Part shown: positions 7,277-16,084 of the stretch, piece by piece | Position numbering within the stretch: the first letter of the stretch is position 1 | How the letters are laid out: every line of letters starts with the position of its first letter | Sequence record: OZ335960.1 | Reading direction: 5' to 3' (one strand) | DNA length: 64,000 bases | Source of the DNA: a phage | The notes under the pieces: generated by a model | What the model was told of the DNA's origin: nothing | Databases searched by the model: none | What the model saw: the letters and a program-made list of their open reading frames with translations, nothing else | Translations under genes and position numbers: made by a program

Positions 7277-9454
7277 TTAGGCCGCAAGGGCCTTCATAGT
7301 TTTAGCGATTTGTGAAACTTCATCATCACTTAAAGAGTTGCGATAACCGATGAAGTCGGAAACAATACGGAATTTCTTAGTAAACTCAGTAACCATTTTA
7401 TCACTGTTTTTTGAAGCATTGTTTGATAATACATCAAAAAGATTAGTTACTGTCCAGATGTCATGACCGATGGTACCTTTTCCACCGTTGAAATATATAC
7501 CCTGCAATGAACTAACCATATTACCAAGGCGAGTATATTCTTCAGAAACTTCATCTACACTGAAGTACTTCATCATAAAATCTAGTTCAGGATACTTAAT
7601 AATTTTATCAATATATCGTTTAGCTGAACTTGAATAACCTACATACTTATCATAATCTACAGCATCAAAAGCATCTACATATAAATCACGTAGAGTTTCA
7701 AAAATACATTGGCATTGACCGAGTTCTTTTACCTTTTTCTGTAAAAGCGGACGAATAACATAAAATTCATTAATGCCAATAAGATTAGCCATACGAGTCA
7801 AAATACTCGTAGATGGATGACAAAGAGATGTAGTACCATCCATAGAGAAAATATCAGAACGATGCATATATGCTACATAGCCAGTAATTTCATCTGCTTC
7901 TGATGTGAGTGTAAACAGTTCCTCTTTTTCCCAGCGTCCGTCTTTAATTTCAAACTTAAATGCAGTGGCAGCTTTAGGACGAGGAGCTTTACTTTTAACT
8001 ACCTTCGGAATATAACTTTTAACTAAAGCTTCAATTTCTGACAAATAATGAATGTTAACTTCATCACTTTCAAACATTGCCATAATATCAGGGAGTAAAT
8101 CAATCTGTGATTCTACTTCCGGATTAATAAACAGAAGACGCTCATTGTGATGAATATTCAAAGTGTTATTAAATTCACTATCATCTAATGCACGTGCTAA
8201 TCCACGGACAATATTAACACGATTTTTAGTATTATCAATAACAATATTAATTTTTGTTGTATTAATACCAAACAGACGATAACTTGATGCAACGGCTGAA
8301 GTTTCATGACTTTGCTTAATGCGTTTCAGTCGAGGGTCAAGATTTACTTCATACACAACCCCTGCATTGCATAGTTTACTATCAGGTTCAAACATGCTTT
8401 GCATCTTCTTATATGACAGATTTTTAGTCGTGAATTTGACTGAATTACTAATCATATAATCTCGAGCAGAATACCCCATCTTCATCAATTCACGGTATGT
8501 ATGACGAGGAGATGTAGATTCTTTAAATCGTTTTACATCTTTATTAAATGCCTTCTCACTGAGCTCTTTAACACGCTCAATAATATTTTTACGAGTACGA
8601 TCATCTAATGAAAGAGCCTCACGCGATGGAGCAATATCAAGTGAACCCATTGGAAACTTAATGTAATTCACTTCATTGCGGATGCTTAACCAGTTACGGT
8701 CTCTAATAACACCATCAATAGGATAAACAATACCACCATAGATAGCATATAATCCACCGCGATCTGGCCAGTATCTTTCTGGATTTACACCGTAATAGTC
8801 ATCAAAATCAGGAAAATAATCAATTTCGCGGTCAAGACCATTAATGATAGCCAAATCTTTGAATGGCCGCATGATATAAGAAACTTCATAAGCAAAGTTT
8901 CTAAAGTCTTTTTCTTCAACTGGAACTACGATTTCAATACCAGTTTTATCGTTTGGACCCATTTCTTTTACGAATGTAGGTTTAATTTGCGGACCATCAC
9001 CATCCATGTAAGCTACATAACCACGAATTTCACCTTTATGATATGAAGTAATACTAAATGTATCAGTATAACTAAACGGAGATTTAGAACCTAAACCAAA
9101 TCCGCCAATGAAATCGTTAGATTCAGCCTTAGATGAACTAAAGTATGAATTATACAACCCAGGAGAATTATCATCACCTTGAATATCAAAATCACTCATA
9201 CCCGGACCAAAATCTCGACAAACAAATCGCGGATCTAATCGTCCTGGAACTTGAATGATAAATTTTTCAGGATTTCCATTGAGAGCATGGGCATCAATCA
9301 TGTTGGTAATCAATTCACGGACTACTGCGCGAATCCTGTTTGTATACAAATCAGATGACAGAATTTTAAATACTTTAGGAGATGCTGTGATGCTAAATGC
9401 TTTTGATTTAGAACCATTACCAAGAATTGTTTCTTTTTCAGTGGTGATAATCAT
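7277..9454 (-). CDS. rIIA: rIIA
   Basis: 725 aa as T4 rIIA; order rIIA-rIIB. Confidence 0.9.
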
Positions 9455-11611: not shown

Positions 11612-11882
11612 ATTTAAAACGGATAGTCGAATCCTTGAAGAATAGACCAGAACATACGGTTCCTTCTACTTTCTGCCCGGTAGGTCCAATAGCACGAAAT
11701 CCAGTATGTTGGAAATCATTTTCAGAGCAACCGAACCAATTGTATCCAGTGATTTCAATATTAGTAAAACCGCTTGAAGACAAAACTTTGGTTGCATTAT
11801 CAGCATCAGTACATCCTGCTAAAGACACTGCTAATACTAATGCCGCGATAGAACGATTAACATATTTCATAATTTCACTCAA
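11610..11882 (-). CDS. predicted lipoprotein, 90 aa
   Basis: Signal peptide plus lipobox LAGC. Confidence 0.55.
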   Translation of the reverse strand: MSEIMKYVNRSIAALVLAVSLAGCTDADNATKVLSSSGFTNIEITGYNWFGCSENDFQHTGFRAIGPTGQKVEGTVCSGLFFKDSTIRFK

Positions 11883-12246
11883 ATTTAATGGCTTGAAGGA
11901 GACTAATAATTCTTAAACGGCTTCTTTCATCTTTAACCGTAAAAGAAAGAGGGTCGCCAGATTTCATAGTGATAGTGCATTCAAAACTAAAATCTTCAGG
12001 AACTTCTTCGAAGAAGTCAAATTCTTCATCATATATTAGAACATTACTCTGAAAACTGTGAAGAATTTTTCCGTCATTTCCAGATGCTGTACTAATCATT
12101 GTAACATTATTACCTTTCATATCTTCAACGATAAATTCGCTTGTAGATATTACGGCATTAATAGAACCATTCCTATAAATAGAAGAAAGCAGATATTTCT
12201 TTTCTTCACCTTCACGAATGCGATATTTCTTACCGATTTTAAACAT
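11875..12246 (-). CDS. hypothetical protein, 123 aa
   Basis: Six-frame ORF; ATG at 12246 (track start is GTG). Confidence 0.5.
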   Translation of the reverse strand: MFKIGKKYRIREGEEKKYLLSSIYRNGSINAVISTSEFIVEDMKGNNVTMISTASGNDGKILHSFQSNVLIYDEEFDFFEEVPEDFSFECTITMKSGDPLSFTVKDERSRLRIISLLQAIKFE

Positions 12247-12248
12247 AA

Positions 12249-12425
12249 TCACCCTTTAAGTAAGTCATAAAATCCGCCATTCACATGCTTAGGAGCAGAA
12301 GGCCGACGAGTAGACAGACGATGGCATTTAGGGCAAACATCATTTTCTCGTTCAGAAATCTTTTTAATTTTTTCGTATTCATGCCCGCAATCTTCGGATT
12401 GGCATTTATAATCATACATTGGCAT
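12249..12425 (-). CDS. FmdB-like zinc-ribbon protein, 58 aa
   Basis: Hand translation MPMYDYKCQSEDCGHEYEKI...CPKCH; two CxxC pairs. Confidence 0.5.
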   Translation of the reverse strand: MPMYDYKCQSEDCGHEYEKIKKISERENDVCPKCHRLSTRRPSAPKHVNGGFYDLLKG

Positions 12426-12427
12426 AA

Positions 12428-12847
12428 TTATTCCTTAAAGTGTGCTTTCAACATCTGATACAAGGACCATGCCTGTTCATTATTTTCAATAGTAACTTTC
12501 ATGACAGGAAATTCTGTGAAATCTTCTATTTGTTCTTGCTCTTCCTGCTCTTGCTCTTCAGATGCCTGATATGGATTTTCAACTTCATCAAAGAACTCAG
12601 CTTCGTTAGTAGAGAGCCAGATAAAGTTTTCGTCAAGGATATCACCATGTGTTGCATATCCAACTGTGCCAGTAGATGTCACAATTTTAGTAGGACGACC
12701 AAGATGGTCAACATCTAAAATTTTAAAAGGATGCATACCTAAACGGCGTGCATAGATTCCGTTATCAGTATGGTCTTTAATAAAATTTTCTTGAGCTTGT
12801 TTATTTTTAAATTGATACCATTTATTAACTTCAAATCTAATAGCCAT
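12428..12847 (-). CDS. hypothetical protein, 139 aa (goF position)
   Basis: Six-frame ORF; acidic E/Q-rich linker; identity to goF not verified. Confidence 0.5.
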
Positions 12848-13062
12848 TAATAAATTTCCTTCCAGTAAGTTGTGCCATCTTCAGTAATTTCACGGAATAC
12901 ACCGTAAATTGGTTGTTTATCGCCGGCTTTCTCATACACATAAACCGAAGTCAAGTGAGTAAACTTAACAGTATGTTCCTTTTGAACTACTACCAAATCT
13001 GGATCGAATAATACATCTTCAAATTCGTCATTAGTGCAGTTCTGAACAATTTTACGTTTCAT
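12847..13062 (-). CDS. hypothetical protein, 71 aa (cef position)
   Basis: Length equals T4 Cef (71 aa) and position fits; sequence identity not verified. Confidence 0.45.
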
Positions 13063-13075
13063 TACAATTTCCTCA

Positions 13076-13357
13076 TTAATTGAACAGTGGAGCGATGCGT
13101 TTCAGAAGAGTGGCAGCACCTTTGGCGAATTTTACATCATGAAAAACAGTTTCTTCTTCCGTTACAACACGAACTTTAATGTTTTCACAATCCCAATTTT
13201 TACGAACAATCTTCAAAAGCTGCAGTAAATCTTTACATTCAGCAATATCGATAACACATCCACGAGAATCTTCCATTATCGCACGATAACCGTAAGCCAT
13301 ACCATAATCGTTGAAAGATTGTTCGATGATAATTAAGTTTTCCATTTTATTCTCCAA
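13076..13357 (-). CDS. hypothetical protein, 93 aa
   Basis: Six-frame ORF downstream of degenerate early promoter repeat. Confidence 0.5.
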   Translation of the reverse strand: MENKMENLIIIEQSFNDYGMAYGYRAIMEDSRGCVIDIAECKDLLQLLKIVRKNWDCENIKVRVVTEEETVFHDVKFAKGAATLLKRIAPLFN

Positions 13358-13442
13358 ATTGTTTTCTGTATCAGTAGTTGATATTGATATAGTACCATAA
13401 TCAACTACTGATGTATATAGTTTTATGAAAAAATTTTAAACT

Positions 13443-13940
13443 TTATGCACAGCGGGCTTTGCTATAGTGTTTAATCCAACTTTCTGGAATGACTTTGTAT
13501 GTTCCTAAAAATACCGCGTTGTACAACTTAACGCCATCTTCTACCCACTGATCGGTAATGTATGCACACATAGCGCGAGTACGGTGTTTTTGAACAACCC
13601 CTTCCTCATCTTCAGTAAATTCGAATTCATAAGGAGCAACGAACTTAATAGCTTGACCGAGTTTCCACTTAAAGTCTACGCCTACATGCGAAGTATCAAT
13701 CGTTTCAATTCCTTTAGCAGGAACAGCTTTCAAAAACGCAGACTCAATAAATTTCGCACGAACATAGCCAAACTGAGGTTTAGATTTTCCATCTTTAGGA
13801 ATGATACGCACTTTTACTTCAGAATCTTCATCTTTAACACCGTGTTTAAGCTGAATGCTTACAATTTCAACCAATTTTCCTGCTGCTTTAGAACGGGATT
13901 TATCAGATACACGAGCAATTTCACCAATATTAATAATCAT
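13443..13940 (-). CDS. hypothetical protein, 165 aa (motB position)
   Basis: Six-frame ORF; C-terminal motif C.YITDQWVEDGV shared with next ORF. Confidence 0.5.
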   Translation of the reverse strand: MIINIGEIARVSDKSRSKAAGKLVEIVSIQLKHGVKDEDSEVKVRIIPKDGKSKPQFGYVRAKFIESAFLKAVPAKGIETIDTSHVGVDFKWKLGQAIKFVAPYEFEFTEDEEGVVQKHRTRAMCAYITDQWVEDGVKLYNAVFLGTYKVIPESWIKHYSKARCA

Positions 13941-13964
13941 AGTTATCTCTCACTTGTTAAAAAG

Positions 13965-14012
13965 ATTTTATACTCCACGGGACCATTATACTCTGGTCCC
14001 AAGAGTTTGTAA
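13965..14012 (-). promoter_or_regulatory. early promoter
   Basis: Minus strand GTTTACAaactcttgggaccagagTATAAT. Confidence 0.5.
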
Positions 14013-14016
14013 ACTA

Positions 14017-14559
14017 TTAATTCAAAATAGCTACCACTGCACTACGAGGTACTACGCTAAAATCGCCTGCATGAACCACGTTCAGAAGTTCAACACCATC
14101 TTCAATCCACTGGTCTGTTACCCAACCACAGACCGAAACAAATGGAGTCTTAATAGCTACTGCACGAGTCAAAAGGTCAGTAGGATCGCATTCTTGGAAG
14201 AGGATAAGCTCTGCTTCAAAGACTATAGTTTTAATTACTTCATCATTATCTAAGCGTTGTGCTCGAATCACATAAGCTTTATTCTTATCATACCAATTAC
14301 TTTTTGAAAAACTTTTAACCACAAACTCGCCTTCACCAAAAACACTAGTCAATGCTTTATAACCCAAACTTAGTTCAGTAGTTTTAATTTCGGTTTCAAC
14401 CAGTTTGTAGGTTTTGCCAATTTCGATGGTCCGAGCAGTCATAAAGGTTTCCTTAATTTCCAGTGGTTTAACAGGGCATACATAAGTGCTTAAAACATCA
14501 AAATCAATCAATTTAGCTACCGGATTTGGTGTGTATTCAGGATTATAATTAAATTTCAT
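14017..14559 (-). CDS. hypothetical protein, 180 aa, paralog of 13443..13940 in C-terminal domain
   Basis: C.WVTDQWIEDGVELLNVV vs C.YITDQWVEDGVKLYNAV. Confidence 0.5.
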   Translation of the reverse strand: MKFNYNPEYTPNPVAKLIDFDVLSTYVCPVKPLEIKETFMTARTIEIGKTYKLVETEIKTTELSLGYKALTSVFGEGEFVVKSFSKSNWYDKNKAYVIRAQRLDNDEVIKTIVFEAELILFQECDPTDLLTRAVAIKTPFVSVCGWVTDQWIEDGVELLNVVHAGDFSVVPRSAVVAILN

Positions 14560-15062
14560 AATTGTCTCATTTCAATAAAATCTACAAGTTCAGCATGGGA
14601 TTTACGGAACATTACTTGGTGTCCGCCAATGATAACTTCATCTTCAGGAACTTCGTATATAGCGAGATAAAATCCTTTAGAAGATAATTCTTCACGCTCT
14701 TCTCGTGTGAACCATCTCATCATATCATATTCGCTAGCGAAAGCAAAATGATAAAGAGCTATAAACCATCCTGGAATATGATATTCTACTCCAACATAAT
14801 CTTTCTTGAACTTAGTATTAATTACTATATTAGCGTTTTTAACTAATAGTTTATCTTCATGTGGTACAGGAATTCTTTTATTATCATCACTATGATGCAT
14901 AAAATTAGGTCTGCTATAACCTACCCGTAATAGCCACTCTTCGCTCCATGAATCTATTATACTCCTGTATGGCGTTATTTGAACACAAAGATTTCGACGT
15001 ATTGTTATAGCATCTTCATAATCAAGAATACTAAACGATGATTCAACACGATAAATTTTCAT
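14556..15062 (-). CDS. hypothetical protein, 168 aa
   Basis: ATG at 15062 with SD GAGGA; track 5' extension overlaps the promoter. Confidence 0.5.
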   Translation of the reverse strand: MKIYRVESSFSILDYEDAITIRRNLCVQITPYRSIIDSWSEEWLLRVGYSRPNFMHHSDDNKRIPVPHEDKLLVKNANIVINTKFKKDYVGVEYHIPGWFIALYHFAFASEYDMMRWFTREEREELSSKGFYLAIYEVPEDEVIIGGHQVMFRKSHAELVDFIEMRQL

Positions 15063-15087
15063 TTTATTATCCTCAGTAGCTATGGTG

Positions 15088-15121
15088 TTATAATACCACA
15101 ACTAACCGAGGAAGTAAACAA
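15088..15121 (-). promoter_or_regulatory. early promoter (-35 GTTTAC, -10 TATTAT)
   Basis: Minus strand GTTTACttcctcggttagttgtggTATTAT. Confidence 0.5.
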
Positions 15122-15125
15122 CTTT

Positions 15126-15809
15126 TTATCGTTTTGTTGGAAGGGAAAGAGGATCGCACTCTTCCTCTGACGGAGCATCTTCAAGACCCATAGCATATCG
15201 CAAAGCATACTTCATCATCAGGATGTCTTTCGCACAGTCATGAATAGAATCATGTGCAACGAATCCGTCTAAAGTTCCCTTTGGAAGAGGACATGTGGTC
15301 ATATCACGAACAAGCAGAAGTGCTTCAATTCTTGTACGGATATCACGCTGATTCCAGAATTTACAAGGTTCTAACTTAAACGTATCAAGCTCATTCTCGG
15401 AAACGCCGTTAAGACGTTGAATATCACGAATGAGATCAACTAAAATTGGAAAATCAAACGACATTCCACGACACCAGCCTTGAGATTTCCAAGGATCGAT
15501 ATTATGCGCATTGATGTAATCATTAAATTTTGCAATACCATCGATAGTGCTTACATCTTCATCTGATGGCGCAATATTTTTTCGAGCTTCAGGAGATTGA
15601 TTTTTCCACCATTCGATAGTGCTTTTAGTAAAAAGACGATGTCCTTTTTGGCTTTTTAAATCAAACTTGATTTTAATGCCGCGTGAAACTAATTCATCAA
15701 ATGTTTCAACTACTTCTGGATTAGGGTCAAAGGCAATAACAGCCAAATCAATAACAGCTGCCTTTTCACCGCTTCCCATTGTTTCAAAATCTATAATAAA
15801 ATCAAACAT
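15126..15809 (-). CDS. dexA: exonuclease A DexA
   Basis: 227 aa as T4 DexA; DEDD-type exonuclease N-terminal motif DFETMG. Confidence 0.8.
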   Translation of the reverse strand: MFDFIIDFETMGSGEKAAVIDLAVIAFDPNPEVVETFDELVSRGIKIKFDLKSQKGHRLFTKSTIEWWKNQSPEARKNIAPSDEDVSTIDGIAKFNDYINAHNIDPWKSQGWCRGMSFDFPILVDLIRDIQRLNGVSENELDTFKLEPCKFWNQRDIRTRIEALLLVRDMTTCPLPKGTLDGFVAHDSIHDCAKDILMMKYALRYAMGLEDAPSEEECDPLSLPTKR

Positions 15810-16084
15810 TAAATTTTCCTCGCTAAATCGCGAATTTGACCTACAGTATAATCTTGGATATAAACTTTATTAATGGGCTCATCAATAAATTTTGCCATAG
15901 ATTCAATATCTTTTTGTATCTCTTCAAGACTGTATACTATCTTTAAAGCTTTTTCGCGAATAGTAACATTATCAGGTCCTGGATTTTCTTGAATGACAGC
16001 TTTAACATTTGCCATAAGAGATTTAAACTGATGCAAACTTAATTCAATCATTAATAACCGCCTTATAAAGATGGCTAATTTCAC
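15809..16084 (-). CDS. hypothetical protein, 91 aa
   Basis: Six-frame ORF, translationally coupled. Confidence 0.45.
   Translation of the reverse strand: MKLAIFIRRLLMIELSLHQFKSLMANVKAVIQENPGPDNVTIREKALKIVYSLEEIQKDIESMAKFIDEPINKVYIQDYTVGQIRDLARKI

Follow-up and report, generated by a model that had tools for sequence, protein, structure and literature searches.

The 64,000-nucleotide stretch of phage DNA analysed here (sequence record OZ335960.1; the whole stretch is called the window below) is a Tequatrovirus (T4-like) segment in which two adjacent early genes on the minus strand encode proteins of 165 and 180 amino acids (aa). On sequence grounds, the 165-aa open reading frame (ORF) is the orthologue of T4 MotB and the 180-aa ORF is a MotB.1-type paralogue of motB. 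The favoured account is that an old duplication would have given two copies of an all-beta C-terminal domain (CTD) of ∼ 52-78 residues, which corresponds to the C-terminal part of PF17613, and that the N-terminal modules were exchanged later. As regards identity and evolutionary origin, it is very probably correct to describe the two as paralogues, MotB and MotB.1, that share an SH3-like CTD and have exchanged N-terminal modules. The two genes and their parts are listed in window coordinates, with limits taken from BLASTP, hhalign and AlphaFold2 (AF2) models; model confidence is given as the predicted local distance difference test (pLDDT) and charge as the isoelectric point (pI).

13443..13940 (stop codon included), minus strand: motB, 165 aa, matching PF17613 (E 1.9e-98)
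13737..13940, minus strand: predicted KOW/SH3-like N-terminal barrel of MotB, residues 1-68, basic, pI 9.8 (AF2)
13680..13736, minus strand: MotB inter-domain linker, residues 69-87, predicted disordered (pLDDT < 50 for residues 69-85)
13446..13679, minus strand: MotB CTD, residues 88-165, predicted all-beta, pLDDT 85-95 (AF2; hhalign 91-159)
13479..13574, minus strand: shared core in MotB, residues 123-154, AMCAYITDQWVEDGVKLYNAVFLGTYKVIPES (BLASTP segment)
14017..14559 (stop codon included), minus strand: motB.1-type gene, 180 aa, phrog_2333
14431..14559, minus strand: N-terminal extension of the 180-aa protein, residues 1-43, predicted disordered (pLDDT 30-36), with the putative portable motif IDFDVLSTYVCPVKPLEIKE
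14188..14430, minus strand: putative GoF/LSm-like N-terminal barrel, residues 44-124 (hhalign against the phrog_622 ORF)
14020..14187, minus strand: CTD of the 180-aa protein, residues 125-180, acidic, pI 4.3 (hhalign 127-178; AF2)
14041..14136, minus strand: shared core in the 180-aa protein, residues 142-173, SVCGWVTDQWIEDGVELLNVVHAGDFSVVPRS (BLASTP segment)

The C-terminal domains of the two proteins are homologous

An earlier note on this DNA had placed both ORFs within 13443-14559 and had described them as proteins with unrelated N-terminal regions and near-identical C-terminal motifs, a claim that was to fall if the similarity proved insignificant on formal alignment. BLASTP of the two proteins gave a single significant segment, residues 123-154 of MotB against 142-173 of the 180-aa protein, in which 16 of 32 residues are identical and 24 are positive without a gap (E 5e-11). 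Scored with BLOSUM62, the ungapped 32-mer reaches 105, compared with 20.0 ± 5.1 for shuffled sequences (maximum 43, n = 2000; z = 16.5). Comparison of family profiles widened the homology. When the family profiles (17 sequences for the 180-aa family and 33 for MotB) were compared by hhalign, 52 columns were aligned between residues 127-178 of the 180-aa protein and 91-159 of MotB (probability 98.7%, E 3.5e-16); within this region MotB carries an extra hairpin, an insertion of ∼ 14 residues. The N-terminal parts show no detectable similarity to each other (BLASTP E 26; the hhalign match is C-terminal only). The similarity is significant, and the shared CTD and the differing N-termini stand as the note had them. 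The wording 'near-identical' is too strong for 50% identity over 32 residues, since only the TDQW-x-EDGV-x-L-x-N core is nearly invariant, and the terminal VIP that the note ascribed to both proteins is found in MotB but reads VVP in the 180-aa protein.

The family databases agree with the pairwise result. The curated gathering cutoff of PF17613 (motB, Modifier of transcription), a whole-protein score, is 25 bits; the score of the 165-aa protein is 327.4 bits (profile positions 1-160), and the 180-aa protein exceeds the cutoff with 34.3 bits from residues 142-175 only (profile positions 120-153 of 162). The match of the 165-aa ORF covers residues 1-163, and this protein also matches phrog_1671 (E 4e-76). 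The 180-aa protein matches phrog_2333 over its full length (E 9.6e-80), and all 232 of its homologues carry a precomputed PF17613 assignment. The PHROG matches of both proteins are reciprocal. An HMM (hidden Markov model) scan of all 1221 stop-to-stop ORFs found exactly two copies of the CTD in the window. Judged from these alignments, the homology of the two C-terminal domains is beyond doubt.

MotB and the MotB.1-type protein carry different N-terminal modules

The window motB shares ∼ 93% DNA identity with T4 motB. The AF2 model of the protein, built from a 33-sequence alignment, has a mean pLDDT of 79.9 and shows the KOW-like N-terminal domain (NTD) followed by a MotB-type CTD (residues 86-165 in the model) with a beta-hairpin insertion, the arrangement of MotB proper (Category 1 of Patterson-West et al., 2021). 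The CTD is neutral (pI 6.9), and the linker is the site of a variable insertion in the MotB family alignment. A Foldseek search of the BFVD with this model returned mainly T4-like two-domain relatives, with low TM-scores because the inter-domain orientation of the model is undefined.

The 180-aa protein is acidic overall (pI 4.9) and its CTD belongs with MotB.1: it is 66% identical to the 143-aa T4 MotB.1 over the last 74 residues (E 4e-31), and only 50% identical to MotB over 32. The HMM ctd1 gave 137 bits on this protein and ctdB 50 bits. Marks of MotB.1-group proteins (categories 2-4; phrog_2333), among them a DPTDLL lead-in and the core WVTDQWIEDGVELLNVVH, are present. The AF2 model of the 180-aa protein is weak (mean pLDDT 58.7); residues 1-42 are disordered in it, and its barrel region, residues 44-124, is a mixture of helix and strand with pLDDT 57-68. 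This region was nevertheless aligned by hhalign over 79 columns with a 125-aa GoF-like ORF of the window at 11878..12252 (phrog_622; probability 82%, E 1e-5), and hmmsearch of the barrel against the same ORF gave E 0.0018. That ORF, which lacks the CTD, is the closest relative of the barrel in the window. The alignment includes the closing E-x-E-[FL]-x-[FL]-F-x-E motif and would link the 180-aa protein to the GoF/Frd.2/MotB.1-NTD group of LSm-like barrels, which are five-stranded, bent and anti-parallel (LSm/SH3 topology); the support is moderate, given the hhalign probability, the weak model and the finding that the 180-aa family gave no signal against the GoF orthologue of the window. For T4 MotB.1, Kim et al. 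(2025; PMC12152347) described an NTD that forms an LSm-like barrel and has GoF and Frd.2 as relatives.

The N-terminal extension contains the motif D-x-D-[VI]-x-S-x-Y...P-[IL]-x-P-L. An HMM of residues 1-43 matches linker or N-terminal positions in P0246, P0247, P0249, P0251, P0252, P0254 and P0262 (representatives of the clusters described below), and the D-x-D-[VI]-x-S-x-Y motif is found in relatives at the N-terminus, between KOW and CTD, or between LSm and CTD. Possibly it is a linear interaction motif of a portable kind, and many MotB proteins have a related DG[YF]V-x-[DE]-x-x-D[VI] stretch in their variable linker.

Mosaic architectures among relatives

A tblastn search of 50,697 phage records with the 56-residue CTD identified 1687 places in 781 records, mostly two per genome, some three and in a few cases one (e.g. 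a T2 record). All of these CTD-bearing phages are phages of Enterobacterales. When 1.84 billion 50%-identity representatives were scanned exhaustively by HMMER with a two-sequence CTD profile, 33 clusters were obtained at E <= 1e-3, of which ∼ 25 are genuine and consist of proteins of 126-251 aa; the family is small. The long multi-stretch matches P0261 and P0265-P0271 (567-1966 aa) were rejected as repeat-boosted chance. These proteins, seven of the eight checked individually, lack the TD-x-W-x-x-[DEN]-G core and are tail-fibre SGYATEQWVLDKNYITG repeats, FIVAR proteins and similar. The core GWVTDQWIEDG superficially resembles the tail-fibre repeat and so attracts repeat-boosted false positives; the tail-fibre-like P0265 (601 aa) has a false Pfam motB match of 29.3 bits, above the gathering cutoff. 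Mapping of five local HMMs onto the clusters gave the following architectures, and P0264 has a Pfam-significant KOW motif.

KOW + MotB-type CTD: MotB
KOW + MotB.1-type CTD: P0248, P0263
KOW + 'D-x-D-V-x-S-M-Y...P-L' motif + MotB.1-type CTD: P0247, P0254, P0262
KOW + intermediate CTD (DPTDLL lead-in, hairpin insertion): P0255, P0257, P0258
motif + LSm-like + CTD: the 180-aa protein of the window, P0251
extra domain + motif + LSm + CTD: P0246
motif + LSm + LSm + CTD: P0249
T4-type NTD + CTD: P0250
T4-type NTD + motif + CTD: P0252

Comparison with T4 by blastn revealed blocks of 93-94% identity at window 14574-15900 and 13338-14129. Between them lies a non-homologous N-terminal cassette of motB.1 (window 14130-14573, T4 7332-7672). 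Homology to T4 resumes at position 14129, inside the CTD core, at the codons for C144-G-W-V-T-D-Q-W. The conserved CTD sequence is a likely recombination anchor. Two short relatives, P0124 (43 aa, phage BYEP01) and P0125 (30 aa), have the MotB.2 start MKIYRVESS... fused in frame to the MotB.1 CTD tail (...EDGVELLNVVHAGDFSVVPRSAVVAILN). They are deletion remnants, all that some genomes keep, and the motB.2/motB.1 interval appears to be recurrently deleted; both resemble the 29-aa RB69 peptide of Category 3 (PMC7827196). Together, the mosaic architectures, the cassette swap relative to T4 and the deletion remnants argue for duplication plus repeated exchange of N-terminal modules. The relationship of the 180-aa barrel to a GoF-like ORF without a CTD also supports domain shuffling. 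The suggestion of duplication or domain shuffling at the motB locus is supported, an old homologous CTD being combined with varied N-terminal modules. The natural domain-swap variants (KOW with a MotB.1-type CTD, doubled LSm) could be used as ready-made chimeras.

Origin of the similarity

A short motif could match by chance or composition, and the core does weakly match tail-fibre repeats and FIVAR proteins, boosted by their repetition. The distance from shuffled sequences, the hhalign E-value and the reciprocal PHROG and Pfam matches refute this reading, to which we give practically no weight. The similarity could also be recent (gene conversion, or a duplication restricted to the 3' end) or reflect a conserved DNA or RNA element instead of the protein; in favour is the high DNA conservation between phages at the motB.1 3' end and around the motB promoter. 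Between the paralogues, however, the DNA of the core is only 55% identical, third codon positions agree at 11 of 32 sites (34%), the same codon is used at 8 of the 16 identical residues, and no Rfam family was found anywhere in the window. The low DNA and third-position identity indicates that constraint acts on the protein. Since third positions are saturated, the similarity is old and reflects neither a recent conversion nor a nucleic-acid element; this codon-level divergence refutes a recent origin, which we consider highly improbable.

The remaining alternative is a tandem duplication of the whole gene, after which the N-terminal halves diverged beyond recognition and no domain was exchanged. 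The two genes are adjacent and co-oriented and both N-terminal modules are predicted to be small beta-barrels of the SH3 class, which speaks for such a history. But the 180-aa barrel is detectably related to the GoF-like ORF and not to the MotB NTD, KOW-type NTDs are found joined to MotB.1-type CTDs (P0247, P0248, P0254, P0262 and P0263), and T4 and the window have non-homologous N-terminal cassettes between 93-94% identical flanks. Whole-gene duplication without exchange is therefore improbable, and we prefer duplication followed by module exchange.

Fold, charge and possible role of the shared domain

In the AF2 model, the CTD of the 180-aa protein has strands at residues 133-137, 142-153, 156-163 and 166-171, followed by a short helical turn and a last strand at 175-179 (pLDDT 66-79). 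These correspond one-to-one, in the hhalign register, to MotB 97-101, 123-134, 137-144, 147-152 and 156-159; the insertion in the MotB CTD is due to its additional hairpin. By its predicted fold, the domain resembles a small beta-barrel of the SH3/Tudor type more than the OB-fold that has been published for it. The resemblance to SH3-like small beta-barrels (KOW, Tudor, PWWP and chromo, the 'Royal family') is one of fold class only and implies no ligand, be it methyl-lysine, nucleic acid or a peptide. PDB sequence searches with the single proteins and with the family profiles returned nothing relevant.

The family consensus of the core, G..tDqW.EdGv.L.N.V..G.f.Vvp.s, contains no conserved basic residue, and the net charge of the 35-residue conserved core lies between -2.6 and -4.0 in all architecture classes (239 family members). 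The conserved surface would be acidic and aromatic, G-[WFY]-[VI]-[TS]-D-Q-W-x-E-[DE]-G ... L-x-N-x-V ... V-[VI]-P. In the literature, the CTD has been proposed to be an OB-fold (cold-shock-type) nucleic-acid-binding domain, a five-stranded barrel whose connecting helix lies between strands 3 and 4, through which both proteins would bind DNA and modulate the nucleoid or transcription; we regard this as unlikely. The acidic and SH3-like character of the CTD core suggests that DNA is bound by the basic KOW domain and that the CTD serves for interactions. From its charge, conservation and predicted fold, we tentatively suggest that the CTD is a common protein-interaction or oligomerization module, a reading that falls slightly below an even chance, with the weight not given to it or to the OB-fold lying on other functions. 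It would couple different nucleic-acid-binding barrels to one partner or complex, for example the nucleoid/H-NS-DNA complex with which MotB is known to associate. DNA would be the ligand of the KOW barrel in MotB, and RNA may be that of the LSm-like barrel in MotB.1-type proteins.

A more specific version is distinctly more doubtful than either of these. The CTD would be a docking module whose invariant acidic-aromatic surface (W-x-[TS]-D-Q-W-x-E-D-G) recruits interchangeable modules, namely KOW (DNA), LSm-like (RNA) and the portable disordered motif, to a common host target such as the H-NS/StpA-DNA complex. Together the two genes would make up a modular system of counter-silencing, perhaps with MotB and MotB.1 as a heteromer, and the null phenotype of T4 MotB.1 might stem in part from constructs based on the reference sequence, in which an extra G removes the last 28 residues of the module (see below).

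Gene order and signals at the locus

The region 13000-15200 is ∼ 97% identical to Escherichia phages sutha and GADU22 and is matched by 595 phage records; the flanks of the motB locus are ∼ 93-94% identical to T4 DNA. On the minus strand, in the direction of transcription, the order is dexA, motB.2, the 180-aa ORF, motB, a 93-aa ORF and cef. The features around the two genes are:

15126..15809, minus strand: dexA, 227 aa, Rv2179c-like exonuclease
14556..15062, minus strand: motB.2, phrog_1106, upstream neighbour of the 180-aa gene
13985..14013, minus strand: sigma-70 early-promoter-like site upstream of motB, TTTACA-17-TATAAT, 11 of 12 matches
13076..13357, minus strand: unnamed ORF, 93 aa, phrog_3720
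12847..13062, minus strand: cef, 71 aa, PF24050

The slot between motB.2 and motB, taken here by the 180-aa ORF, is that of motB.1 in the T4 reference annotation, where it likewise lies directly upstream of motB in the dexA-cef early region. The stop codon of motB.2 overlaps the start of the 180-aa gene (ATGA at 14556-14559), which suggests translational coupling. A mechanical motB.2 ORF of 181 aa opens at TTG 15101; T4 MotB.2 begins with MKIYRVESS, and the start is likely the ATG at 15062, which matches it. The sigma-70-like site scored highest in a consensus scan of 13000-15300. It sits in the 76-bp gap upstream of motB, and its sequence is identical in T4; it is a putative early promoter. 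The plus-strand antisense ORFs 13584..14012, 13855..14253 and 14562..14687 have no family support and were dismissed as artefacts. No tRNA was found anywhere in the window.

A terminator scan found no terminator-like site in 13000-15300. The minus-strand RNA between motB and the 93-aa ORF contains an AT-rich hairpin (window 13370-13412) with a 13-bp outer and a 5-bp inner stem (dG -20.2 kcal/mol, z = -5.0 against shuffles), which that scan does not call (no T run, low GC content). Its role could lie in RNA processing or stability, or it could terminate transcription weakly downstream of motB. The 93-aa ORF is extra between cef and motB; T4 has a 170-bp gap there and no counterpart of window 13138-13337, and the ORF is another insertion/deletion polymorphism of the hyperplastic early region. 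Two further GoF/phrog_622-type (LSm-like) ORFs, at 11875-12252 and 12428-12847, lie 1-2 kb downstream of motB, which makes for a cluster of several small, paralogous barrels in the early region.

MotB.1 is truncated in the T4 reference sequence

The T4 reference (AF158101.6 = NC_000866.4) annotates a MotB.1 of 119 aa that ends in ...GGWVTDQWIGRWR. Compared with the window (ATTGAAGATGG), a single extra G lies within the CTD core of motB.1 in this record (ATTGGAAGATGG, NC_000866.4 7304-7305), and the remainder of the domain (EDGVELLNVVHAGEYSVVPRSAVVAILN) persists in another reading frame. The reference's own 571-nt stretch is matched at 100% by only the two reference records; a full match over 570 nt is found in 11 other records that are named T4 or nearly identical to it, including T4T, RB55 and RB59. 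In five other T4 records, KJ477684, MT984581, HM137666, OZ209023 and OL964735, the extra G is absent, and the encoded MotB.1 is 143 aa long and has its complete CTD. The 119-aa form has a mass of 13.8 kDa and the 143-aa form 16.2 kDa. Kim et al. (2025) cited NC_000866.4 for the motB.1 amber-mutant fragment and reported a 13.8-kDa MotB.1 monomer (PMC12152347), and in the 2021 supplement T4 MotB.1 has a PSI-BLAST coverage of 0.48 compared with 0.94 for relatives (PMC7827196). The main text of neither paper mentions a frameshift or truncation of MotB.1. We offer the extra G, which is read from sequence records, as a caution and not as a demonstrated error in the published MotB.1 work; it matters for anyone cloning motB.1 from NC_000866.

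Comparison with known systems

A full-text literature search for motB.1 returned only Patterson-West et al. (2021; PMC7827196) and Kim et al. (2025; PMC12152347), and through these two papers the CTD paralogy of MotB and MotB.1 is already known. Patterson-West et al. aligned 102 phage homologues, found that MotB and MotB.1 share the CTD and differ in the NTD, sorted the proteins into four categories, which include a second distinct type of NTD, and proposed that one of the two genes probably arose by duplication of the other. Kim et al. reported that deletion of motB.1 has no phenotype. What the present analysis adds is incremental: a reading of the CTD as SH3-like, the acidity of its core, the hybrid architectures and the breakpoints of the cassette.

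T4 MotB, a basic protein made early, shows tight, non-specific DNA binding; on DNA it is co-purified with H-NS and StpA, it alters H-NS footprints, and it is toxic on overexpression and increases burst size two-fold (PMC6070864, PMC7827196). Few other nucleoid-associated proteins encoded by phages are known to interfere with H-NS silencing. The window protein resembles T4 MotB in its full-length Pfam match, its position downstream of a putative early promoter and its two-domain model of KOW-like barrel and CTD. It differs in length (165 instead of 162 aa) and has a small indel and substitutions at residues 105-118 in the CTD hairpin. The 180-aa protein shares with T4 MotB.1 the genomic slot, the CTD and the full-length phrog_2333 match. 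Unlike T4 MotB.1, it has ∼ 110 N-terminal residues that BLASTP cannot align, encoded by a non-homologous DNA cassette; its disordered N-terminal motif is extra, and its barrel is closer to the GoF-like ORF of the window. Its N-terminal sequence type is contained in the consensus line of Figure S1 of the 2021 paper (PMC7827196), and it is probably a member of Category 4 of that study, the group with 'another distinct NTD'.
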